NCBI GenBank assembly: GCA_966211435.1
Contig: CBIHOG010000021.1
Location: forward strand, 6,353-70,352
DNA from: an uncultured Variovorax sp.
Lineage (GTDB): Bacteria > Pseudomonadota > Gammaproteobacteria > Burkholderiales > Burkholderiaceae_C
Direction of reading: 5' to 3'
DNA: 64,000 nt
The notes under the pieces were generated by a model. It saw only the letters and a program-made list of their open reading frames with translations, did no database searches and was not told the origin of the DNA. Positions 1-12,129 of the stretch are shown here, one piece after another (within the stretch, counting starts at the first letter, position 1; each line of letters opens with the position of its first letter). Position numbers and translations under genes: made by a program.

Positions 1-402
1 GTTGGCGCGGAAGGTGCCGTCGATCAGGCCGACGGTGGGAAAGTTCTGTACGCCCGAGAAACCGAGCATGACCAGGCGCTGGAGGAACTCCTCCGGGATC
101 ATGAAGGGATCGGTGCCATTCACGCCTGCCAGCACCGGCGTGTGCTTCACCACCGGCAGCACCTCGCGCGCCATCTCGCAGACGATCTCGTTGGCATTGC
201 CGTAGGCCAGCAGGCCGGCGAGCGAGCCGCGGCCCGCCATGCGGTAGCGGCCGGAGTTGTAGATGACGATCATGTCGATGCCGCCGGCTTCCTCGCACTT
301 GGCCGAGAGGCCGGTACCGGCGCCGCCGCCGATGATCGGCTGGCCGGCGGCGATCTTGGCGCGGAAGCGTTGGAGCAGGGTGGATCTGGAGATGCGCGGC
401 AT
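1..402 (-). CDS. Phosphoenolpyruvate-hydrolase-like TIM-barrel protein (Tm-1 C-terminal homolog), 3' truncated by window edge
   Basis: Not in the ORF track. Manual translation from ATG at 402 gives [74 protein letters not shown]..., the signature of this family; open to position 1. Confidence 0.9.
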
Positions 403-422
403 GGTCGTGTCGTGGTCCCTGG

Positions 423-2648
423 TCAGGCACGCCGTGCGTTGGCGGGAGACCGGGCCGCTTCTTGCCAGGCCTGCACGAGCGCCTCGGCGAAGGCTTCGTC
501 GTTGATGTGCAGCGGCAGGCGCTGCAGTTTGTGGTCGGGGCCGGCGCGGAAGCCTTTCTCGATGGCGTCGAAGAGCGCGCGGTCGGCTTCCGGGTCGTGG
601 AAAGGCTGGCCCGGCCTGTCGATGGCGGAGACGCCGCTTTCGGGAATGAGGAAGCGCACCGGTCCGCGCATGGCGTTGAGCTTGGCGGCGATGAATTCGC
701 CGATCGCTCGGCACTCCTCGGCGGTGGTGCGCATCAGCGTCACGGTCGTGTTATGGCGGTAGAGCTTGCGGGATCTGAAGCGCTCGGGCACCGTGTCCCA
801 GGCGCCGAAGTTGATCATGTCCAATGCGCCGCAGGAGCCGACGTAGGGCAGGGCGTGGCGCGCGAAGACGTCCAGCCGCGCCGGGCCGGCGGAAAGCACG
901 CCGGCGCCGATCTCGTCGGCGATCTCTGTGGTCGACACGTCGATGGCGCCGGCGAGCAGACCTTGGTCGGCGAGCTTCTCCATCGACTGTCCACCAACGC
1001 CGGTGGCGTGGAAGACCAGGCAGTCATAGCTGTCCTCGAGACGCTTGGTGACGGCCTGCACGCAGGGCGTGGTCACGCCGAACATGGTGAGGCCGATGGC
1101 GGGCTTGACCACCGTCGAATGCACGGGCGGGTGCGCGATCATCCCGGCCAGTGCGTTCGCGGCGTTGGCGAACACGCTCTCGCTGATGCGGTGGATGCCT
1201 TGCACGTCAGTCACCGAATACATCATGCAGATGTCACTCGGGCCCACGTAGGGCCGCGTGTCGCCGCTGGCCATGGTGGAGACCATCATCTTGGGCACGC
1301 CGATCGGCAGCGCGCGCATGCCTTGCGTGGCCATGGAGGTGCCGCCCGAGCCGCCGGCGGAGATGATGCCGCCGAGATCGCGGCGGGTGCGCAGGAAGGC
1401 CTCGAAGGCGATGCCCATCGCGGCGGTTGCGCTGCCGCGGTCGCCGCTGAAGACCGCCGACTCGCCGCCCGGGTGATGGCGTGCCACCTCGCGAGGATGG
1501 ATGCTGGCGGAGGAGGTCTTGCCGGAGGTGGAGAGGTCGACGGTGACCACGCGCAGGCCGAGGCGCTCCAGGCATTGCCGCAGGAAGAACAGCTCGCGCC
1601 CCTTGGTGTCGAAGGTGCCCGCGACATAGGCCGCGCGCACGCTGCTCGCGGCCACCGGGAAGTCGAAGACCTGGGCCGGGGCGGCAGCGGGCTCCGGCGG
1701 CGCGGGTGGCGCAACGGCGGCCAGGCGGGCGATGTCGGTGACCGGCGCGGCGGTGCCGCCGGCGTTCCAGCGCGTGAAGCCGCGCACGGTGCCAGGCGCC
1801 ACATCATCGAGCGAGGGAGCGCCGTCGCCATGTGCCCGGCGCACGGTGAAGACGCGTACGGGTGGCGGCTCGTCGGGCTCGGCGGCGGAGGCCTGCGCCT
1901 CCTCCTCCTGGCCCGCCGAGCGCACGCCGAGCAGGCGCTCCTGCAGTTCGCGGTCGGCAGCCAGCTGCGCGCTGGGCATCTGCTGCGCGATGCGGCCGTT
2001 GACCATCACGCCGATGCGGTCCGCGACCGAGATCGCGACGCCAAGGTTCTGCTCGATCAGCAGCACTGCGATGCGTCCTTCGGCGGCGAGGTCGCGCAGC
2101 GACTGCGCGACCTGCTCGACGATCACCGGTGCCAGGCCTTCGGTGGGCTCGTCCATCACGAGCAACTTTGGGTCGAGCAGCAGGGCGCGGCCGATGGCCA
2201 GCATCTGCTGTTCGCCGCCGGAGAGCTGCGAGCCGCCATTGCCGCGGCGCTCGGCGAGGCGCGGGAACATGGCGTAGATACGGTCCACATCGCGCCTGCG
2301 GCTGGCGACCAGGCGCAGGGTTTCATCCACCGAGAGCGAGGGCCACACGCGCCGCCCCTGCGGTACATAGGCGATGCCGCGGCGGGTGATCTCATTGGGT
2401 GCCAGGCCCAGTACTTCCTCGCCCAGCAGCCGGACGCTGCCGCGCGCGGGCACCATGCCGGTGATGGCGTTGCACAGCGTGGTCTTGCCCATGCCGTTGC
2501 GCCCGACGATGCCGAGAACGCCGCGTTCCAGCGACAGGCTCACGCCCTGCAAGGCGTGGGCGCGGCCGTAGAACACGTCGAGCCCCTCGACCGCGAGCAC
2601 CGGCGCGCGGCTGTCCGAGTTGTCTTGCGGCTTGCCGAACCAGGCCAT
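423..2648 (-). CDS. Fusion: LivF-type ABC ATPase + Pro/Ala linker + Tm-1-like ATP-binding (UPF0261) domain
   Basis: N-terminal GRNGMGKT Walker A, LSGGEQQ signature, LLVMDEP Walker B; C-terminal GTFDTKGRE and GGSGGT motifs of UPF0261/Tm-1; single 741-aa ORF. Confidence 0.9.
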
Positions 2649-3466
2649 CAGTGCCGGCTCCCCATGTAGATGGCCTGCACCTGCGCATCGCCCTCGATTT
2701 CCTGCGGGCTGCCGGTGCGCAGCACGCGGCCGTTGTGCATCACGGTCACCTTCTCGACCACGCGCAGCGCGATGTCCAGGTCGTGCTCGATCAGCACGAA
2801 GCTCATGTGCGCCGGCAGAGAGCCGAGCAGCGCGACCAGCTCGCGGCGCTCGGCCGGCGAGAGCCCCGCGGCCGGCTCGTCGAAGAGGATCAGGCGCGGC
2901 GCACCCGCCAACGCCATGCCGATCTCCAGTTGCCGCTGCTGGCCGTGCGCCAGGTTCGCCACGCGCTCGTCGGCGATGTGGCTGAGCCGGGTGCGTTCCA
3001 GCAGGTCGTTGGTGGCCATCGAGGAGTGATGGCCGAAGCGTGCGCGCTTGAAGCTGAAGCGTCCGTTGGAGACGCCGCGCACGGCGAGGAACAGGTTGTC
3101 CCGCACCGTCAATTCACGGAACAGCAGCGAGGACTGGTAAGTGCGCCGCAGGCCCTTGCGGATGCGCTCGCAGGGCGGCAGCGTCGTGATGTCCTCGCCG
3201 AAGAAATGGATCCGCCCCGCGGTGGGCGGAAAGTCGCCGGTGATGGCGTTGAAGAGCGTGGTCTTGCCGGCGCCGTTGGAGCCGAGGATGGCGTATTTCT
3301 GCCCGGCCTCGACCGTGAGCGACACGTCGTCGACCGCGCGCAGCGCGCCGAAGGCGCGGGTCACCCCCTCCAGCCGGAGCGCATCGCCCGACAGCAGCTG
3401 CGTGCCGGCGTGGGGGGCGGCGGCGCCGCGCAGGGCGGCCGGCCGCAAGGGGGTGATGGTGGCCAT
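2648..3466 (-). CDS. LivG-type ABC transporter ATP-binding protein
   Basis: GSNGAGKT, LAHGQQRQ, ILFDEP, IEHD; start placed at the second Met (MATITPL), behind a GAAGGG SD-like sequence. Confidence 0.9.
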   Translation of the reverse strand: MATITPLRPAALRGAAAPHAGTQLLSGDALRLEGVTRAFGALRAVDDVSLTVEAGQKYAILGSNGAGKTTLFNAITGDFPPTAGRIHFFGEDITTLPPCERIRKGLRRTYQSSLLFRELTVRDNLFLAVRGVSNGRFSFKRARFGHHSSMATNDLLERTRLSHIADERVANLAHGQQRQLEIGMALAGAPRLILFDEPAAGLSPAERRELVALLGSLPAHMSFVLIEHDLDIALRVVEKVTVMHNGRVLRTGSPQEIEGDAQVQAIYMGSRH

Positions 3467-3494: not shown

Positions 3495-4748
3495 CTACTT
3501 GCGGCAATCCGGCACGTCACGGGTGCCGAGGCCCATCTTCTGGAACTCCGCCTCGGGCAACCCGAGGGTCTGAGTGATGTTGGGCACCGACTTCACGACC
3601 TTGTTGTAGAAGGAACCGTCCGCCGCCTTCGTCACTTCTGTGATGTAGGTGGTGCCGACGCCGTTGCGGTTGGCGTCGATCTTCACGTCGCCGGCCGGGC
3701 CCTTGAAGTTGGTCTTTTGCAGCGCCTCGCGGTAGGCCTTCTGCCCGCCGGAGAGGTCACCCTTCACCACGTCCAGCGCGTCGAGCGCGGCCTTGGTGTT
3801 GATGTAGTAGAGGTAGGCGAAGAGCGAGGGGCTCGGGAAGCCGTCCTTGAAGTTGGCCTTGTAGTCGGAGACGAATTTCTTCCACTCCGGCGTGTCGATC
3901 GAGTCGGCCATCGGCCCGGCGGAGGCCGTGCCCAGCAGCGACTCGCGGCGCTTGCCCTTGAAGTTGAGCACCGTCTGGTCGACCGTGATCGAGCCGCCGA
4001 TCATCGGCTTGTCGCCGCCGGCCTGCTCGTACTGGGTGAGGAAGTTCACCGCGTCCGAGCCGCCAAGCACCACGACGAGCGCATCGACGTCCTTCGGGAT
4101 CTTGGCGATCACGGAGGCGTAGTCCTTGGTGCCAAGCGGCACCCAGGCCTTGTCCACCACCTTGCCGCCCTTGGCGCAGTAGCTGGCCATGAAGCCCTGC
4201 ACCTGCGAGTAGGGGAAGCCGTAGTCCTCGGCGATCAGGAAGGTCTTCTTGTAGCCTTTGGAGAGCGCATGCTCGCCCAGGCCCACCATCCATTGCGCGC
4301 CCTCGGTGTTGAAACGGTAGAAGTTCGGCGCCGGGTCGCCCAGCGTCGCGCCCTGCGCGCCAGACGAGCCGTTGATGAAGGTGATGCCGGGCTGCGTCTT
4401 CGCGTAGTTCTTGACCGCGATGCCCTCGTCACCCGACAGCGGGCCGATCATGATCTGCACCTTGTCCTGTTCCACCGCCTTGCGCGTGGAGTTGACGGCC
4501 TTGTCGGGCGTGGCGTCCGACGAGACCTTGACGAATTCGATCTTCTTCCCGCCGGCCATGCCGTTCTTCTGCTTGAGCGCGAGGTCCGCGCCGCGCATGC
4601 CATCCTGCCCCGGCGCCGCGAAGGGGCCTTCGAGCGAGGCCAGCAGCCCGATCTTCAAGGTCTCCTGGGCCTGCGCCCAACCCGTGACCGCGATCAACGC
4701 CGCGGCGCCGATGAGGCTGCGTGCCAACACGCTTGTGCTTTTCTTCAT
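3495..4748 (-). CDS. ABC substrate-binding protein, branched-chain amino acid (HAAT/LivK-like) fold
   Basis: Signal peptide, LKIGLLASLEGPFA, GADLAL, periplasmic-binding-protein type I layout. Confidence 0.9.
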   Translation of the reverse strand: MKKSTSVLARSLIGAAALIAVTGWAQAQETLKIGLLASLEGPFAAPGQDGMRGADLALKQKNGMAGGKKIEFVKVSSDATPDKAVNSTRKAVEQDKVQIMIGPLSGDEGIAVKNYAKTQPGITFINGSSGAQGATLGDPAPNFYRFNTEGAQWMVGLGEHALSKGYKKTFLIAEDYGFPYSQVQGFMASYCAKGGKVVDKAWVPLGTKDYASVIAKIPKDVDALVVVLGGSDAVNFLTQYEQAGGDKPMIGGSITVDQTVLNFKGKRRESLLGTASAGPMADSIDTPEWKKFVSDYKANFKDGFPSPSLFAYLYYINTKAALDALDVVKGDLSGGQKAYREALQKTNFKGPAGDVKIDANRNGVGTTYITEVTKAADGSFYNKVVKSVPNITQTLGLPEAEFQKMGLGTRDVPDCRK

Positions 4749-4763: not shown

Positions 4764-5912
4764 TTATGGATGAATGCGGCCGCGGCCGCGGGGGGTGAAC
4801 GGGGCCGGCAGGCGAGTGCGCAGGTGTTGCCACAAGCCGAGCAGACCGTCGGGGGAGAACAGAACAATGGCGAGGAAGACGCCGCCGATGACGAGATTGA
4901 AGCGTTCGCGGTCAACGAGGTCGATCGCGAAGTTCTGCAGCAGCACGAAGACGATCGCGCCGACGAAGGCGCCGATGGGATGCTTCATGCCGCCCAGCAC
5001 GGCGATGATGAGAATGTTGATCATCGCGCCGGTGCCGATGGTCCCGGGCGAGATGCGGCCGTTGTACCAGACCATCAGCACGCCGCCGACGGCCGCGAGA
5101 AAGCCCGCCACCGCGTACGCGCCCACGCGGTGCGCGGTGACGTTGTAGCCCAGCGCCTGCATGCGGCGCGGGTTGTCGCGGATGCCCTGCAGCGCGATGC
5201 CGAAGGGCGCGCGCACCAGGTGCTTGACGAAGAAGTAGCCGCCGAGCGAGCACGCCAGGGTGAGGAAGTAGAAGGGCATCGGCTCGTGCATGTCCTGACC
5301 GAAGACGGTGGGTGGCGCGATGCGGCTGAAGCCCTGGAAGCCGTTGAAGATGGTGTAGTTCTGCTGCGCCAGGTAGAAGAAGGCGACGCCCACGGCCAGC
5401 GTGATCATGATGGTGTAGATGCCCTCGGTGCGCACCGACAGCCAGCCGACGGCCGCGGCGAAGACCGTGGCCAGCGAGATCGCCACGAGCAGCGCGAGCC
5501 ACCAAGGCCAGCCGAGGCTGATGCCGACATTGCTGCTGGTGCCGAAGATCGCGAGCGCGTAGGCCGCGAAGCCCGCGACCGTCATCTGCGCGAGCGAGAC
5601 CATGCCGCCGTAGCCGCCAAGGAAGGTGAGCGACAACGCGATGAGGCCGAGCGCGAGGGATTGCGCGCCGATCTGGAAGGTGAAGAACGGCGTGGCGAAG
5701 AAGGGGTAGGCGAGCACGAAGATGGCGACCAGAATGTGGCGTGCCTCGATGGCGTGCAGCGCCTTCTTCCACCAGCTCTGCCCGGGCTGCACCGAAACGG
5801 CCGCGGGGCGCGTCCCGGCCGGGTGCACGGCCACCGGCCCGCGCGGCGCGCGCGCCGTGCCGGCCGCGGTGGCCGAGGAATTCATGGCCCTGCGCCATTT
5901 CGCGGCGCTCAT
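4764..5912 (-). CDS. LivM-type ABC permease
   Basis: GYGGMVSLAQ, GIYTIMITLA, GIRDNPRRMQALG, VLGGM; ATGA overlap with the upstream livH-like stop at 5909-5912. Confidence 0.88.
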   Translation of the reverse strand: MSAAKWRRAMNSSATAAGTARAPRGPVAVHPAGTRPAAVSVQPGQSWWKKALHAIEARHILVAIFVLAYPFFATPFFTFQIGAQSLALGLIALSLTFLGGYGGMVSLAQMTVAGFAAYALAIFGTSSNVGISLGWPWWLALLVAISLATVFAAAVGWLSVRTEGIYTIMITLAVGVAFFYLAQQNYTIFNGFQGFSRIAPPTVFGQDMHEPMPFYFLTLACSLGGYFFVKHLVRAPFGIALQGIRDNPRRMQALGYNVTAHRVGAYAVAGFLAAVGGVLMVWYNGRISPGTIGTGAMINILIIAVLGGMKHPIGAFVGAIVFVLLQNFAIDLVDRERFNLVIGGVFLAIVLFSPDGLLGLWQHLRTRLPAPFTPRGRGRIHP

Positions 5913-6850
5913 GTGTTCTTTCCCATCAGCCCGCGCGGCTTGAAGGCCAGCGCCACGACCATGATCACGAAGGTGAAGACCACGCTGTAAGTCGGCGCAT
6001 AGGCCAGCCCGAACTGCTCGGCCAGTCCGATGAGCAGCGCGCCGATGGCCGCGCCCACGACGCTGCCCATGCCGCCGACGATGACGACGACCAGCGAGGC
6101 GAGCAGGTAGCGCGTGTCCTCGCCCGGCGAAATGGAAAGCGCCGTGCCGCCCACCACGCCCGCGAGCCCGGCCATGCCGGCGCCGATGGCGAAGGTGAGC
6201 GCGAAGACGCGTTGCACATTCACGCCCGAAGCGGCGAGCATGCCGCGATCGTCCACGCCGGCGCGGATCATCATGCCGATGCGTGTGCGCGCGAGCAGCA
6301 GCCACAAGCCGACGCCGATGACGACGGAGGCGAGCAGCACCATGAGCCGGTAGGTCGGGAACTTGTTGACCAGCGGCAGGGTGGTGGAGCCGTAGATCCA
6401 GGCGGGCGGATCGAAGGTGTAGATCTCGGCGCCCCAGATCCACAGTGCGACGTCGGCCAGCACGATCGAGAGACCGATGGTCACCAGCGTCTGCCTCAGG
6501 TCCTGGCCCTGCATGTGGCGGAAGATGAGCAACTGCATCAGCAAGCCGAGGATGGCAGCGGAGAGGAAGCCCGCGATGACGGCCAGCACCCACGAGCCCG
6601 TGTGCTCGCCGACCATCCAGCCGACGTAGGCGCCGATCAGGTAAAGCGAGCCGTGCGCGAGGTTGACGTTGCGCATGAGGCCGAAGACGAGCGTGAAGCC
6701 GCTGGCGACGAGGAAGTAGAGCGAGGCGAGCGTGAGGCCGTTGAGCAGCGTCTTGAAGAAGAGCGATGCGTTGTCGGCGATGGCCCAGACGGCGAACACG
6801 GCGATCGGTGCGCCGAAGACGAGCCAGAGCGCCCCCTGTTTTCGAGTCAT
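5909..6850 (-). CDS. LivH-type ABC permease
   Basis: LNGLTLASLYFLVASGFTLVFGLMRNVNLAHG, GMMIRAGVDD, VGGMGS; start MTRKQG overlaps the amidohydrolase stop. Confidence 0.9.
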   Translation of the reverse strand: MTRKQGALWLVFGAPIAVFAVWAIADNASLFFKTLLNGLTLASLYFLVASGFTLVFGLMRNVNLAHGSLYLIGAYVGWMVGEHTGSWVLAVIAGFLSAAILGLLMQLLIFRHMQGQDLRQTLVTIGLSIVLADVALWIWGAEIYTFDPPAWIYGSTTLPLVNKFPTYRLMVLLASVVIGVGLWLLLARTRIGMMIRAGVDDRGMLAASGVNVQRVFALTFAIGAGMAGLAGVVGGTALSISPGEDTRYLLASLVVVIVGGMGSVVGAAIGALLIGLAEQFGLAYAPTYSVVFTFVIMVVALAFKPRGLMGKNT

Positions 6851-8130
6851 GCGGCGTGCTCCCAGGTCCGCTGCGACGCGATCTCGGGTACCTTGGCGAA
6901 TTCGCCGTCCTTCATCACGGCCAGGATGCGCTTCGGGTCGCGCAGGATGGAGAGATTGGCGAGCGGATCGCCGTCCACCAGCAGCAGGTCGGCGAGGTAG
7001 CCGTCCTTGATGGCGCCGAGTTCGCTGCCGCGCATCATGATCTGCCCGCCATAGACGGTGGTGCTGCGGATGGCTTCCATGGGCGTGAACCCGAGGTACT
7101 TGACGAAGAACTCCAGGTCGCGCGCGTTCTGGCAATGGGGCGTGAAGGCGAAGCCGTAGTCGCCGCCGGGCAGGATGCGCACGCCGCGGCGGTGGATGGC
7201 CTTCAGCGACTCGATGGCCGCATCCCACTCGATCTGGTAGCCCATGGCCACCGCCTTCTCGTGGGTGATGCCGAAGGCGGCGGCTTCGTGCAGCATCGCG
7301 TAGAGGATCGCGATGCCGGGCGCGACGAACACGCGGTCCTTCGCGGCTTCGAGCATGTCGAGGGTTTCCTCGTCCGTGAAGCTGGCGTGGTAGATCACGT
7401 CGATGCCGTGGCGCAACGCCTGCTTGACCGAGGCGGCCGAACGCGCATGCGCGGTGCCGCGCTTGCCGCGCACGCGCACTTCCTGCATGGCGGCGTCGAC
7501 TTCGGCATCGCTCATCCAGGTGGTGTCGGCGGGTGAGTCGGGCGTGAAGTTGTCGCCGGAGAGGTTGAGCTTGATGGAGTCGACGCCGTACTTCAGGAAC
7601 ATGCGCGTGACCTTGCGCATCTCGTCCGCAGAGTTGACGTTGACGCCGAAGCTGAATTCAGGAAAGGGAAGGTGGGGCAGGGTCTCGTCGCCCAACCCGC
7701 CGGGGACGGTGATCTCCTGGCTTGCCGCGAGGTAGCGCGGCCCCGGGATCTGCCCTGCATTGATGGCGTTGCGGATCACGACATCGAGCCGCGGCTTCGC
7801 GCAGGCGGCCCCCACGCAAGAGGTGAAGCCTGCCTCGAGGTAGCGCCTGGCGACCTTGGCGCACCACAGCACGTGCTCTTCCAGCGGCATGCGCTGGATG
7901 GCGGAGAGGGTGGCCGCATCGTTCCACGAGAAGTGCGTGTGCGCCTCGCACATGCCAGGCATCAGGGTGGCGCCCGCGCCGTCGACCACCATCGCCCCGC
8001 CGGGTGAGATCGGCGCGGTGCTGCGGCCGACCTGGCGGATGCGGTTGCCTCGGACGAGGACGCTGCCTGTGTAGGGGTTCTGGCCAGTGCCGTCCAGGAT
8101 GCGGACGTTGGTGAAGACTACGTCACTCAT
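6847..8130 (-). CDS. Metal-dependent amidohydrolase (prolidase-like subgroup), copy 1
   Basis: MPGMCEAHTH (HxH), SIK, AHAR, IYHAS, PGGDYG, GYLADLLLVDGDPL. Confidence 0.9.
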   Translation of the reverse strand: MSDVVFTNVRILDGTGQNPYTGSVLVRGNRIRQVGRSTAPISPGGAMVVDGAGATLMPGMCEAHTHFSWNDAATLSAIQRMPLEEHVLWCAKVARRYLEAGFTSCVGAACAKPRLDVVIRNAINAGQIPGPRYLAASQEITVPGGLGDETLPHLPFPEFSFGVNVNSADEMRKVTRMFLKYGVDSIKLNLSGDNFTPDSPADTTWMSDAEVDAAMQEVRVRGKRGTAHARSAASVKQALRHGIDVIYHASFTDEETLDMLEAAKDRVFVAPGIAILYAMLHEAAAFGITHEKAVAMGYQIEWDAAIESLKAIHRRGVRILPGGDYGFAFTPHCQNARDLEFFVKYLGFTPMEAIRSTTVYGGQIMMRGSELGAIKDGYLADLLLVDGDPLANLSILRDPKRILAVMKDGEFAKVPEIASQRTWEHAA

Positions 8131-8232
8131 GAGGCTCTCCTTCGGACGGCGGGAGGCGATGGGCGCTGGATAGGGGCGTGCTGATCAAGACGCCCCGTGC
8201 CGGGCGTCCTTCCAAGGCAGGCGCAAGACAGG

Positions 8233-9540
8233 TCATGCCGCCACCAACCCTTGCCCGGACCACCGCGTCGTCCGGGCCCCGCGCAAAGCCGGCGCGCGAT
8301 GAAACTCCCCATCCTTCATCACGGCCAGAATCCGCGCCTTGTCCTGCAGCACGGTGATGTCCGAGAGCGGATCGCCGTCGATCAACAGGATGTCCGCCAG
8401 ATATCCTTCGCGGATGTACCCCAGCACCTTGCCCATCCGCATCATCGGCCCGCCCCACGCGGTCGCGGAGAGCAGCGCCTCCATGGTGCTCATCCCCACG
8501 TACTTGACGAAGTACTCGAGGTCCCTGGCATTGGTGCCATGCGGCGTCCATGCGAAGCCGTAGTCCCCGCCGGGCAGGATGCGAACGCCGCGCTTGCGCA
8601 GCGCACGCATGCTCTCGATGGCGGCGTCGAGTTCGCGGTGGTAGCCCATCTTCCGCGTCACTTCCGGCGTCAGTCCCCACTCGCTCGCGTTGTGGCAGGT
8701 GTTGATGAGCCATGCCAGCCCCGGCGCGATGAAGTGCTCCATCTTGTGCGCCTCAAGCATGTCCAGCGCCTCCTCGTCCGTGAAGCTCGCGTGGTAGATC
8801 ACCTCGATCCCCTGCTTCACGCACTGCTTGATCGCCCACGTCGAACGGGCATGCGCCGCCACTCGCTTGCCCCAGGCCTTGGCCTCCTGCACGCAGACCG
8901 TGATCTCCTCCTCCGTGAACTGGCTCATCTCGCTCGGCATGCCCGTGATCGACTCGCCCGAGAGATTGATCTTCAACGAGTCGACGCCGTACTTCGCGAA
9001 CATGCGCACGCAGCGCCGCATCTCCTCGCAGCCGCTCACGACCGCGCCGAAGGCGAACTCCGGCTGCGGCAGGTGCGGCTGCGTCGTGTCGCCCAGGCCG
9101 CCGGGCACCGTGATCTCCTGGCTCGCCGCCAGGTAGCGCGGACCGACGATGGTGCCGTCCTGGATCGCGTTGCGGATCACCACGTCCAGCCGCGGCTTCG
9201 CCGTCGCCGCGCCGACGCAGCTGGTCCAGCCCATGTCGAGGTAGCGCTTTGCAACCTCCGCGCACCAGAGGATGTGTTCCTCCGGCGGCATGCGCTGGAT
9301 CGCGTCCAGGCTCGGCTGGTCGTTCCACGAGAAATGCGTATGCGCCTCCACCATGCCCGGCATCAGGAAAGCGCCCGCGCCGTCGATCACCTGCGCTCCC
9401 ATCACGGGCGCCGCGCGACCGCCGTAGCCCGTCTTCACGACGCGCGCGATGCGGTTGCCCTGCACCAGAACGTCGCCCATGAAGGGCGCCTCGCCGCCGC
9501 CGTCGAAGATGCGGACATTGGTGAACATGACGTCGGCCAT
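8233..9540 (-). CDS. Metal-dependent amidohydrolase, copy 2
   Basis: C-terminal part of the 1215-aa track ORF; real start MADVMFTNVRIFDG at 9540; MPGMVEAHTH, AAHAR, IYHAS, PGGDYG. Confidence 0.9.
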   Translation of the reverse strand: MADVMFTNVRIFDGGGEAPFMGDVLVQGNRIARVVKTGYGGRAAPVMGAQVIDGAGAFLMPGMVEAHTHFSWNDQPSLDAIQRMPPEEHILWCAEVAKRYLDMGWTSCVGAATAKPRLDVVIRNAIQDGTIVGPRYLAASQEITVPGGLGDTTQPHLPQPEFAFGAVVSGCEEMRRCVRMFAKYGVDSLKINLSGESITGMPSEMSQFTEEEITVCVQEAKAWGKRVAAHARSTWAIKQCVKQGIEVIYHASFTDEEALDMLEAHKMEHFIAPGLAWLINTCHNASEWGLTPEVTRKMGYHRELDAAIESMRALRKRGVRILPGGDYGFAWTPHGTNARDLEYFVKYVGMSTMEALLSATAWGGPMMRMGKVLGYIREGYLADILLIDGDPLSDITVLQDKARILAVMKDGEFHRAPALRGARTTRWSGQGLVAA

Positions 9541-9542
9541 GG

Positions 9543-10340
9543 TCAGTTCCTCGTGTTGGAAGCCAGGAATTCGCGCAGCTCGCGCTGGCACTCTTCGGGC
9601 CGTTCGATCGGCGTCCAGTGGCCGCAGCGCGGCAGTACCACCACGCGCTTGCTCGCGGCGCGATGCAGCTTGTCGGCCATCGCGCGCACCGACTGCGGCG
9701 GCGCCACGCCGTCCTCGTCGCCGGTGACCAGCAGCACCGGCGCCTCGATGCGCTCCACTGCCGCGGGCTGCGCGCCGGCCAGCGCCTCGCAGCTGCGCGC
9801 ATAGGCCTCGCCGTCCTGGCGCATCAGGCTTTCGCGCACATAGGCCACCGCGACCGGCAGGCGCTGGCGCGTATCGGCGGAGATCGCGGCGTTCAACAGC
9901 CCCTGCGTGATCTCGTGCATGCCGCCCGCGCCTTCGCGGGCCTTCGCCGCGCGGGCCTGCATGGCCGTGCGCGCGGCGTCGGGCGGCGCGATCAGCGGGC
10001 CGAAGAGCGCCATGCTCGCGGCGAGCGAAGCGTGCTCTGCCGCGATGTGCTGGCACACGATGGTGCCCATCGAATGCCCAACCCAGTGCGCGCGCGTGAT
10101 CTTCAGCCGCTCGCAGATGCGCAGCAGCGTCTCGACATAGCGCTCGATGGAGAGCGCGCCCTCCGCTCGCTGCGAGCGCCCGCTGCCGGGCAGGTCCACG
10201 CGCACGACGCGATGCCGCGCCATCGCGGGCATCAGCGGCGTGTAGGTGTTGGAGCTGCCACCCAGCCCGTGCACGCAGACGACGGCCGGGCCTTCGCCGT
10301 CCTCCTCCACCGCGACGCGATCGATCAACTGAAAGGCCAT
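9543..10340 (-). CDS. Alpha/beta fold hydrolase (PcaD/enol-lactonase-like)
   Basis: HGLGGS oxyanion loop, GHSMG nucleophile elbow, DEDGVAP, GHW catalytic His. Confidence 0.88.
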   Translation of the reverse strand: MAFQLIDRVAVEEDGEGPAVVCVHGLGGSSNTYTPLMPAMARHRVVRVDLPGSGRSQRAEGALSIERYVETLLRICERLKITRAHWVGHSMGTIVCQHIAAEHASLAASMALFGPLIAPPDAARTAMQARAAKAREGAGGMHEITQGLLNAAISADTRQRLPVAVAYVRESLMRQDGEAYARSCEALAGAQPAAVERIEAPVLLVTGDEDGVAPPQSVRAMADKLHRAASKRVVVLPRCGHWTPIERPEECQRELREFLASNTRN

Positions 10341-10346
10341 GGTCTG

Positions 10347-11213
10347 CTACTCGAAGTGGTTCTCGATGACGCCGACGCCGTCGATCTCGATGCGCACCGC
10401 GTCGCCGGACTTCAGCCATTGCGGCGGCTTCTGGCCCATGCCCACGCCTGATGGCGTGCCGGTGGCGATCACATCGCCGGGGTACAGCGTGATTCCGCGC
10501 GAGCAGGTCTCGATGAGGGTGGGGATGTCGAAGATCATGTCCTTCGTCAGCCCGTCCTGCCGCAGCGCGCCGTTGACCCAGCCGCGCACGCGCGTGGCGC
10601 GGCCGTCGAGTTCGTCGGCGGTGACGATCCACGGGCCCATCGGGCAGAAGGTGTCGAAGCTCTTGCCCAGGTCCCATTGCTGGTGGCGCATCTGCACGTC
10701 GCGCGCGGTCACGTCGTTGACGATCGTGTAGCCGAAGACATGCGCCATGGCGTGTGAGCGTGGGATGTCGCGGCCGCCGCGGCCGATGACGACCGCAAGC
10801 TCCGACTCGTAGTCGATCTGCACCGAGATCGAAGGCGAGGGCAGGCGCACCGCGTCGTGGGGGCCGATCACGCATTCGCCCAGCTTGCCGAAGACGATGG
10901 GCCAGGGGTCGGTCTCGGGCATGGTCTCGCGGAACACGGTGCCGGCGAGTTCGGTCGCATGCGCGTGGTAGTTGCGGCCGACGCAGAAGAGGCCGCGCAG
11001 GGGACGCGGCAGCGGCGCGCGAAGGGTGATGACATCGACCGGCAGCCGCGTGCCGGAAGGCTGCGGCAGCGGCTCGTCGCGTGCGATCGCCTGGATGAGC
11101 GGCAGCACACCCAGTGACGCATCGCGCACGGACAGCGGCGTGGCTTCCCGCCCGTCCGGCGAGATCGTGCCCACGTGATCGCGTCCGCCCCAACTCCAGC
11201 TGGCCAAGCGCAT
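10347..11213 (-). CDS. Fumarylacetoacetate hydrolase family protein
   Basis: CVGRNYHAH, DYESEL, GYTIVNDVTARD, GKSFDTFCPMGP, GDVIATGTP; start MRLASW behind a GGAGA SD. Confidence 0.92.
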   Translation of the reverse strand: MRLASWSWGGRDHVGTISPDGREATPLSVRDASLGVLPLIQAIARDEPLPQPSGTRLPVDVITLRAPLPRPLRGLFCVGRNYHAHATELAGTVFRETMPETDPWPIVFGKLGECVIGPHDAVRLPSPSISVQIDYESELAVVIGRGGRDIPRSHAMAHVFGYTIVNDVTARDVQMRHQQWDLGKSFDTFCPMGPWIVTADELDGRATRVRGWVNGALRQDGLTKDMIFDIPTLIETCSRGITLYPGDVIATGTPSGVGMGQKPPQWLKSGDAVRIEIDGVGVIENHFE

Positions 11214-11284
11214 CGCAGTTGTCTCCATCTTGTCCCGGGGTTCTTGCGGTTCGCACCACCGCCTCGGGATCAGTGAAAGTCCTT

Positions 11285-11304
11285 TTTGAGACTTGTGTCT
11301 CAAA
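11285..11304. promoter_or_regulatory. Putative TetR operator (perfect inverted repeat TTTGAGAC-ttgt-GTCTCAAA)
   Basis: 8-bp perfect inverted repeat with 4-bp spacer in the divergent FAH/TetR intergenic region. Confidence 0.7.
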
Positions 11305-11382: not shown

Positions 11383-12129
11383 ATGGCACGACTGAAGCAC
11401 AAGCTGAGCGAACCGCCCGTGCCTCCCGATCGCGGCGTGAAGGCAGCCACCTTCAACCTGCTGCTCGACACCGCGATGGACATCATTCGCCAGAGCGGCC
11501 ACATTCCATCCGTCGCCGAGGCGGCGGCGCGCTCGAAGGTGTCGCGCGCGACGGCGTACCGCTACTTTCCGAGCCGCAGTGCGCTGATCACGGCGGTGGT
11601 CGACAGCTCGCTCGGGCCGGTGCGCAAGCTCGCCTCCGACAACCCGAGCGGACGCGAGCGGGTGCACGAACTCTTCCTGCAGACCTTCCCGCGTTTCAAG
11701 GAGTTCGAGCCGCAGATGCGCGCCGCCGCGCAGCTGTCGCTGGAGCAATGGGCGCTGGAGCGCGCCGGGCTGCTGGAGGAGGAGCCGTACCGGCGCGGCC
11801 ACCGCGTGCGCATCCTGGAGCACGCGATCGAGCCGCTCGCGCCGCTGCTGCGGCCGGCCGTGCGCGACCGGCTGCATCACGCGCTGTCGGTGGTCTACGG
11901 CATCGAGCCGTACATGATCCTGAAGGACATCTGGGGCCTGGGCGACCGCGAGGTCGAGCGCACCGCGCTGTGGATGGCCGACGCGCTCATCGATGCGGCA
12001 TTGCGCGAGTCGGGCGAGAAGCCGGCCGGACGCGCGTCTCGTGCCGCGAAGTCCAACGGGAGTGCCGGCGCCGCGAGCCCGGCGCCGGCCACCGTCAAGC
12101 GTCGCCCGGCCCGCGTCCCGGGCGGCTGA
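11383..12129 (+). CDS. TetR/AcrR family transcriptional regulator
   Basis: HTH PSVAEAAARSKVSRATAYRYF; divergent from the catabolic operon. Confidence 0.92.
   Translation: MARLKHKLSEPPVPPDRGVKAATFNLLLDTAMDIIRQSGHIPSVAEAAARSKVSRATAYRYFPSRSALITAVVDSSLGPVRKLASDNPSGRERVHELFLQTFPRFKEFEPQMRAAAQLSLEQWALERAGLLEEEPYRRGHRVRILEHAIEPLAPLLRPAVRDRLHHALSVVYGIEPYMILKDIWGLGDREVERTALWMADALIDAALRESGEKPAGRASRAAKSNGSAGAASPAPATVKRRPARVPGG

Follow-up and report, generated by a model that had tools for sequence, protein, structure and literature searches.

A Tm-1-type UPF0261 domain joined to an ABC importer ATPase in a Variovorax operon

The UPF0261 family, together with a partner triosephosphate isomerase (TIM) barrel of family PF09370, forms a gene pair that spans bacteria, archaea, and plants, and an activity is known for just one UPF0261 protein, MarK (2025), and for no PF09370 protein. 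In Novosphingobium aromaticivorans, MarK uses ATP to phosphorylate phenolics, acetovanillone among them; H219 bonds the phenolic oxygen, H304 pi-stacks, and K16 lies at the ATP site, and the family fold offers a site for ATP as well as one for a small molecule (PMC12624787). The same pair gave rise to tomato Tm-1, a derivative of agronomic importance. Here, we analyze a gene that places a UPF0261 domain of the Tm-1 type on the end of an ATP-binding cassette (ABC) importer ATPase, found in a 64,000-nucleotide stretch of an uncultured Variovorax sp. (assembly GCA_966211435.1, contig CBIHOG010000021.1, positions 6,353 to 70,352 of the forward strand; this whole stretch is called the window below). 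An earlier note on this DNA, made from the sequence alone, held that the native function of both Tm-1 domains is unknown; MarK has made this outdated for UPF0261, but it remains valid for the TIM barrel and for pairs of the Tm-1 type.

The fusion is genuine and under selection and is no artefact. What, then, does an enzyme-family domain do on the end of a transport ATPase? As a tentative answer, we posit a transporter-tethered, ATP-dependent enzyme in a flotillin-scaffolded assembly, and we weigh this proposal below against its rivals.

The fusion protein and its linker

The minus-strand open reading frame in question translates without a stop into 741 residues and, as had been claimed, joins a LivF/UrtE-type ABC ATPase to UPF0261 through a linker of 94 residues, each part lying where the earlier note had put it (Table 1). 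Pfam assigns residues 33-169 to ABC_tran (PF00005; 95.8 bits against a gathering cut-off of 25), residues 340-505 to the UPF0261 N-domain (201.7 bits), and residues 515-730 to UPF0261_C (300.4 bits; PF06792 and PF23189, gathering cut-offs of 27), and against the NCBIfam UPF0261 equivalog NF002673 (cut-off 520) the protein reaches 582.6. AlphaFold2 (AF2), run on a 54-sequence alignment, returns the ATPase and UPF0261 parts as two confident domains (predicted local distance difference test [pLDDT] mostly 85-96) with a predicted template-modelling score (pTM) of 0.53. In an alignment of 54 diverse fusions (A4), the motifs of the nucleotide-binding domain (NBD) and the UPF0261 core are invariant.

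The linker is coding sequence: across it the in-frame GC content at third codon positions (GC3) is 0.73-0.93 and that at second positions (GC2) is lower, the pattern that marks coding sequence in this genome of 68% GC. The reading frame is continuous in 22 of 23 fused loci, which come from independent assemblies and include complete genomes, and a check of the frame in 14 loci besides that of the window found the ATPase running uninterrupted into UPF0261 every time (14/14). The linker lacks Met, as had been noted, and thus has no ATG from which a free UPF0261 protein could start; no Shine-Dalgarno sequence is seen ahead of its in-frame GTG codons. At the other end of the gene, the fusion ATG overlaps the stop codon of the upstream ATPase gene by one base, and this shared base suggests that translation of the fusion is coupled to that of the upstream gene.

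A broken copy exists in genome G643, a metagenome-assembled genome (MAG) that is 71% complete: where the ATPase domain ends, 44 nucleotides are duplicated in tandem (L044:9780-10260), which frameshifts the gene, so that LivF terminates early and UPF0261 lies in a different frame. The sister genome (L046) is intact and lacks the duplication. The lesion is derived and reflects either a mistake of assembly or a natural split of recent date.

The ATPase domain carries a full set of motifs: Walker A GRNGMGKTT at residues 49-57, Q97, the signature LSGGEQQ at 142-148, Walker B DE at 166-167, and EQN at 199-201 replacing the H-loop. It had been described as an intact LivF ATPase. Intact it is, but the LivF label is less secure: UrtE (TIGR03410) scores 209.7 bits over residues 18-232 against an equivalog cut-off of 285.8, and LivF (NF008626) scores 151.5 bits over residues 17-237 against one of 441. 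The same holds for the transporter parts as a whole, in which urea-transporter Urt models outscore Liv models and neither reaches its curated cut-off. Ordinary LivF paralogues stop at an 'LLGV' (.R) near residue 243; the fusion runs some 500 residues further.

The UPF0261 part earned its Tm-1 label, since its closest solved protein is tomato Tm-1 (PDB 3WRY, E 1e-91); MarK follows at E 3.5e-58. K349 (nucleotides 1602-1604, within GTFDTKGR) aligns with the ATP-contacting K20 of Tm-1 and K16 of MarK and is invariant in A4; the domain is predicted to bind ATP. In the substrate pocket, H547, H632, and G524 align with MarK H219, H304, and G195, whereas V525, M611, N613, and I676 stand in place of MarK T196, F283, I285, and H348 and are identical or similar to their Tm-1 counterparts ([16 protein letters not shown]). 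The hydroxyl-binding core is thus kept, and the specificity residues are not. In addition, acvCDEF-type biotin carboxylase and phosphatase genes are absent from the 15-kb operon. Judged by pocket residues and operon context, the fusion does not appear to be a MarK orthologue.

The gene for the TIM barrel begins at nucleotide 402, exactly 20 nucleotides past the TGA of the fusion, as the earlier note had said, and the claim that this neighbor completes the plant Tm-1 pair in the same order stands: PF09370 matches the whole 281-residue protein at E 1e-128. The barrel is nearly identical in family to PDB 2P10 (Mll9387, an unannotated structural-genomics protein; E 8e-125). The genome holds one UPF0261, one PF09370, and one Flot gene, and all three lie in this operon.

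The linker had been called a Pro/Ala linker. It does contain a length-variable Pro/Ala/Ser spacer, preceded by an acidic start and a stretch (about residues 264-308) that is conserved within the genus, but it is not mere filler. T292, R293, and W294 are its sole invariant residues in A4, and a [TN]RW triplet is found in the linker of 244 of the 247 fusion proteins collected; two of the three exceptions are garbled gene calls, and the third has TQW. The usual context is P-T-R-W or F-T-R-W, mostly as 'SNPxxPTRW' in Alphaproteobacteria, whereas Variovorax usually has '[11 protein letters not shown]'. Unfused LivF proteins that adjoin UPF0261 genes (L038 and L055) have neither a tail nor the motif. 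Based on this pattern, TRW may be a short motif on which a partner docks in trans. AF2 gives the linker a pLDDT of 26-36 with no secondary structure, which predicts disorder. Together with the pTM value and the variable linker length, this makes the connection look like a tether and not a rigid coupling.

Gene partners and distribution

To which genes is the fusion tied? We compared the gene sets of 23 fused loci (that of the window and 22 others) with those of 14 loci carrying a close unfused UPF0261 gene. A flotillin gene is present in 23/23 fused and 0/14 unfused loci. Both of two SRPBCC genes occur in all 23 fused loci, and one SRPBCC gene is found in 5 of the 14 unfused. The TIM barrel is adjacent in 19/23 fused and 12/14 unfused loci, which fits what would be expected of a two-subunit UPF0261-TIM enzyme. 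A set of FAH, alpha/beta hydrolase, and amidohydrolase genes accompanies about half of the fused loci, in full or in part. Within the genus, a Flot-domain gene occurs in exactly 7 of 25 sampled genomes, namely those with the fusion and each time about 2 kb downstream of it, and is missing from the remaining 18; the genomes are related and so not independent, and hence no p-value is attached to this count.

Unfused loci show what the pair looks like by itself. A TetR homologue is found in 5 of the 14. TetR homologues that are 38-48% identical to that of the window stand divergently ahead of unfused UPF0261-TIM pairs (L035, L036, L040-L042, L056, and L057). TetR, UPF0261, and TIM look like a smaller unit, which would probably sense a related ligand. 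At L038 and L055, an unfused HAAT-family transporter, different from that of the window, adjoins a TIM-SRPBCC-UPF0261 cluster; we count this arrangement as Rosetta-stone support for a transporter-enzyme link.

Four fused loci (G135, G223, L013, and L014) have no adjacent TIM gene. G135 and G223 keep the ATP motif, and in each of the two genomes the barrel could come from a second locus with TetR, UPF0261, and TIM genes. In L013 and L014, the UPF0261 domains are only 30-33% identical and sit on very long branches, while the ATPase domains are still 60-66% identical, and the ATP motif GTFDTKGR has decayed to GSMDVNSR or GAMNRRPE, a decay seen in these two loci only. A search of the genome holding L014 found no PF09370 gene anywhere. 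An intact ATP site thus goes with the presence of the barrel. The flotillin of these two loci (L013:11213-13948 and L014:11129-14470) is enlarged to 911-1113 residues by a central insert and receives no Pfam call, and the operon goes on to encode a molybdenum hydroxylase of CoxSML-like type together with MoxR and VWA proteins.

The full-length fusion is patchily spread. It is found in 7 of the 25 sampled genomes of the genus (in one, G013, a contig end cuts the gene, which matches only from residue 289), in 11 of 401 Pseudomonadota genomes drawn evenly, and in 16 of 401 Alphaproteobacteria genomes sampled with balance across families, where at least 13 families are represented. More than 120 protein clusters consist of full-length relatives that are at least 80% identical, many from Variovorax assemblies; others lie at 41-53% identity, one of them from an Agrobacterium, and a profile of divergent members, searched at E<=1e-100, picks up at least 7,800 protein clusters. 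On a tree of UPF0261 domains, the window protein and a protein of another genus of the same family nest, strongly supported, within alphaproteobacterial fusions (98/96 and 100/98). This nesting, together with the patchy presence in the genus, suggests that the Variovorax copy was acquired by horizontal transfer. The backbone of the tree is unresolved, and its best version requires the fused label to change 3 times; it neither shows that the fusion arose just once nor speaks against this.

Some apparent variants fell away. Several long matches to LivF paralogues in related genomes, seeming to reach residues 318-325, proved by tblastn to be read-through past a stop into low-complexity sequence, and two apparent reverse-order architectures from a search of representatives (P0222 and P0237) are permease-LivG-LivF and LivG-LivF fusions without UPF0261. 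Other partners of UPF0261 do exist: P0186 (626 residues) ends in Cupin_5 (DUF985), and P0172 (743 residues) is a single-chain UPF0261-PF09370 protein of Tm-1-like architecture.

The fusion belongs to the known UPF0261 and ABC ATPase families, with MarK as its closest characterized and Tm-1 as its closest relative by sequence, and its architecture is already present in public annotation: JGI names both halves, and one NCBI record reads 'Tm-1-like ATP-binding domain-containing protein'. Most NCBI PGAP records (P0009, P0014, P0285, and others) label this soluble protein 'ABC transporter permease', a wrong and systematic misnomer that obscures the architecture in text searches. Our literature search found no paper on the fusion, on its link to flotillin, on flotillin together with SRPBCC, or on PF09370 function; the only relevant ones were PMC5028733 and PMC12624787.

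The importer operon

The fusion is best read as supplying the second ATPase of an ABC importer of the HAAT family (Liv/Urt type), and the set is complete, with a second ATPase, which has no C-terminal extension, two BPD_transp_2 permeases, and a Peripla_BP_6 binding protein (Table 1). The operon runs on one strand in the order FAH-family enzyme, alpha/beta hydrolase, two amidohydrolases, two permeases, binding protein, LivG-type ATPase, fusion, and TIM barrel; the genes are tightly packed, and several stop and start codons overlap. The uptake or catabolic setting proposed in the earlier note is borne out. The module as drawn there was too short, however, as it ended at the window edge. It lacked the flotillin and two SRPBCC genes that follow downstream past the window start, the second SRPBCC domain being fused to a quinone-reductase-like dehydrogenase, and it also lacked the upstream amidohydrolases, PcaD-like hydrolase, and FAH enzyme.

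Table 1. Features of the fusion operon (window coordinates unless prefixed L002)
Feature	Coordinates	Strand	Residues or remarks	Basis
PF09370 (PEP_hydrolase-like) TIM-barrel gene	1..402, cut by window start; whole gene L002:5909-6754	-	281 aa	Pfam
ABC ATPase-linker-UPF0261 fusion gene	423..2648	-	741 aa	Pfam, NCBIfam, full-length relatives
UPF0261 N- and C-domains, Tm-1 type	447..1643	-	aa 336-734	Pfam, NCBIfam, PDB comparison, AF2
Linker	1644..1925	-	aa 242-335	alignments, AF2, GC3
TRW motif	1767..1775	-	T292-R293-W294	invariant in alignment A4 (54 sequences)
Nucleotide-binding domain, LivF/UrtE type	1926..2612	-	aa 13-241	Pfam, NCBIfam, AF2
Partner ATPase, LivG/UrtD type	2648..3466	-	probable start ATG 3466	Pfam, NCBIfam
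Periplasmic substrate-binding protein, Peripla_BP_6	3495..4748	-		Pfam, NCBIfam
Permease, UrtC/LivM type	4764..5912	-	probable start ATG 5912	Pfam, NCBIfam
Permease, UrtB/LivH type	5909..6850	-	probable start ATG 6850	Pfam, NCBIfam
Amidohydrolase 1, carboxypeptidase/amide-hydrolase type	6847..8130	-		Pfam, NCBIfam, PDB
Amidohydrolase 2, tandem paralogue	8233..9540	-		tblastn with L024 paralogue, 83% identity
Alpha/beta hydrolase	9543..10340	-		closest 3-oxoadipate enol-lactonase PcaD, under curated cut-off
FAH-family enzyme, HpaG/HpcE group	10347..11303	-	first operon gene	family matches
TetR-family regulator	11383..12129	+	divergent	family match

The closest solved relatives of the binding protein are 4ZPJ, followed by 4EVQ, 4EY3, 4EVS, and 4F06, and all of them outscore urea binders; the latter four we take to be Rhodopseudomonas palustris binders of benzoate derivatives. 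HAAT-family binding proteins such as RPA0668 and RPA0985 bind aromatic acids (PMC3223731). Amidohydrolase 1 is closest to the Arg carboxypeptidase Cc2672 (PDB 3MTW, E 8e-44) and also matches ochratoxinase-type amide hydrolases. Amidohydrolase 2 sits in the tail of a spurious 1215-residue open reading frame; its paralogue in L024 is from a related genus. The listed open reading frames 8123-8713 and 8753-9802 were rejected as genes, since they match no family and their GC pattern across codon positions is wrong.

The flotillin carries PF01145 (Band_7/SPFH) and PF15975 (Flot) and a hydrophobic N-terminal helix at about residues 6-30. It scores 42 bits against the FloT equivalog, for which the cut-off is 700, and by that measure is not FloT itself. 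The first SRPBCC protein (L002:3749-4189, minus strand) has as its closest solved relatives uncharacterized bacterial SRPBCC proteins (XoxI 3CNW, 7TMU, and 3F08; E about 1e-17) and matches onion lachrymatory-factor synthase at E 5e-4. A link from the SRPBCC genes (Pfam PF10604) to the PYL receptors for abscisic acid of plants was considered and dropped, as the PYL matches are nonsignificant (E 0.24-0.7); these scores give no support to the idea that the PYL and Tm-1-like genes of plants share a source in bacteria. A VOC gene of the glyoxalase/extradiol dioxygenase type (L002:1874-2251, minus strand) directly follows the SRPBCC-dehydrogenase gene. The downstream VOC and methyltransferase genes were not retained in the core module, being conserved solely in the nearest relative (the genus of L024).

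Readings of the fused domain and known systems

We posit, tentatively and at somewhat less than an even chance, a mechanism in which the disordered tether of about 95 residues binds the importer ATPase permanently to the Tm-1-type UPF0261 domain, and UPF0261 and the PF09370 barrel would act at the cytoplasmic face of the importer as a two-part ATP-dependent enzyme. By analogy with MarK, UPF0261 would most likely phosphorylate a hydroxyl group, such that the solute may be modified or trapped during entry, and the barrel, which resembles phosphoenolpyruvate (PEP) mutase, would take the phosphorylated product. The two SRPBCC proteins could hold a hydrophobic ligand or product, the membrane-anchored flotillin of the operon could organize the assembly, and the TRW motif may dock on flotillin, SRPBCC, or another such partner. 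As for the solute, a hydrophobic or aromatic acid is probable, either free or joined to an amino acid as an amide, to judge from the relatives of the binding protein, the amidohydrolases of the Arg carboxypeptidase/ochratoxinase type, the HpaG-type FAH enzyme, the PcaD-like hydrolase, and the quinone-reductase-like SRPBCC gene.

Several observations weigh against this proposal. All of the substrate hints lie below curated cut-offs, and the top-scoring models for the parts of the transporter are those of urea transporters, a result that an amide or ureide substrate would fit as well as an aromatic one. Kinase chemistry is an extrapolation, because MarK is a TIM-less homodimer in a different operon and four pocket residues differ. 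The domain is carried by one of two ATPases, so that a UPF0261 homodimer needs two transporters. Finally, L013 and L014, with no TIM gene and a decayed ATP motif, retain the domain, TRW, the flotillin, and the SRPBCC pair; because they do, the tethered domain seems to have a second role that is independent of ATP and catalysis.

A more specific version of the tethered-enzyme proposal, which we consider rather unlikely, is an ABC importer with a built-in substrate kinase: UPF0261 would phosphorylate the solute upon its release, and the barrel would process the resulting enol- or aryl-phosphate, all within a TRW-docked flotillin microdomain. If true, this would be a group-translocation-like mode for ABC transport and would reveal the ancestral biochemistry of plant Tm-1. 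It would also provide the first defined client and function of a proteobacterial flotillin.

Could UPF0261 instead be a regulatory or sensor domain that binds ATP or a metabolite and tunes the ATPase, with the TIM barrel being simply the next enzyme of the pathway? C-terminal extensions of importer ATPases are typically regulatory, as in MalK, MetN, and ModC, and the family fold has both of the sites named above (PMC12624787). Retention of the domain where the ATP motif has decayed and TIM has been lost from the genome fits a sensing or structural role better than catalysis. However, the known regulatory domains directly follow the NBD and are present on both NBDs, whereas here the domain follows a disordered and length-variable linker on one of two ATPases, and it is hard to see how an allosteric signal would pass along such a tether; moreover, where the TIM barrel is present, the ATP-site Lys and the pocket His residues are strictly conserved. 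We therefore regard regulation as unlikely and prefer a tethered enzyme, given that the tether is long and disordered, that residues of catalytic type are retained, and that the partner gene lies next to the fusion. The coupling or channelling of solute and the nucleotide-sensing control suggested in the earlier note are both plausible.

A second alternative, quite unlikely as a full account, is scaffolding, in which dimeric UPF0261 cross-links transporters or TRW recruits the complex into flotillin assemblies, the purpose being localization and not chemistry. The co-occurrence of flotillin and fusion is perfect both across loci and across the genomes of the genus, the TRW motif is confined to fused proteins, and the lineages that have lost TIM and the ATP motif keep domain, motif, and flotillin. 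With one UPF0261 per transporter, a homodimer (the state of both MarK and Tm-1) must bridge two complexes. Scaffolding nonetheless leaves the conservation of catalytic-type residues and of the TIM partner unexplained, and it is compatible with a tethered enzyme, not exclusive of it.

Less probable still is a fusion that serves only co-expression or stoichiometry in the Rosetta-stone sense, with no coupling to transport. Unfused layouts of the same genes (L038 and L055) and the close UPF0261-TIM pairs that operate without a nearby transporter at most unfused loci speak for it, but the fusion has lasted in many families of Alphaproteobacteria and reached Betaproteobacteria too, almost always with the linker motif and with a flotillin of its own, which is a stronger constraint than co-expression by itself would set. 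An artefact of frameshift, misassembly, or read-through is effectively refuted: chance long open reading frames are common in high-GC DNA, with several in the window, and the G643 MAG has a broken version, but the coding GC3, the 22/23 frame-continuous orthologues, and thousands of database proteins leave it virtually no probability, and the G643 lesion is derived, its sister genome being intact.

The fusion fixes a UPF0261-TIM pair to one importer with its own binding protein and regulator, and this provides experimental handles. The ligand of the binding protein should identify the substrate, and the TetR and AraC regulators should respond to that substrate. The UPF0261 domain should be removable without affecting the transporter. 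The exclusive co-inheritance of flotillin is a rare case of a defined genetic partner for a bacterial flotillin, and a near-universal TRW in an otherwise freely evolving tether is a precise target for mutagenesis.

How does the locus compare with known systems? Tomato Tm-1 and plant Tm-1-like proteins (PDB 3WRV-3WRY; PMC5028733) are the best solved match and share the order of UPF0261 followed by PF09370. In plants, both domains lie in one chain with no transporter, and antiviral activity is a derived function; here, the two are separate genes (TGA at 423-425, a 20-nucleotide spacer, and ATG at 400-402), and the UPF0261 N terminus is fused to an ATPase.

MarK (Saro_1862, PDB 9MPY) shares the UPF0261 N- and C-domains and the equivalents of K349, H547, H632, and G524. 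It is, however, a free homodimer without a TIM partner that heads the acetovanillone carboxylase operon (acvCDEF), whereas the Variovorax protein forms one chain with an ABC ATPase, is closer to Tm-1, and differs in the pocket by T196V, F283M, I285N, and H348I.

The LivF/UrtE ATPases of HAAT importers share all NBD motifs, the LivG/UrtD partner, the permeases, and the Peripla_BP_6 protein; the fusion differs from them in its continuation of about 500 residues and in scoring under both equivalog cut-offs. The regulatory domains of MalK, MetN, and ModC are contiguous with the NBD, sit on both NBDs, and dimerize within one transporter. The fusion resembles them in having an accessory domain after an importer NBD, yet it lacks that contiguous arrangement on both NBDs: its domain belongs to an enzyme family and hangs on a long tether of low pLDDT from one of two different NBDs. 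Group translocation, or vectorial metabolism, is represented by sugar phosphorylation in the phosphotransferase system (PTS) and by FadL-FadD vectorial acylation. These systems have no sequence relationship to the fusion and are not ABC importers; they couple uptake to an ATP- or PEP-dependent trapping modification, and it is this coupling that we propose for the Variovorax importer.

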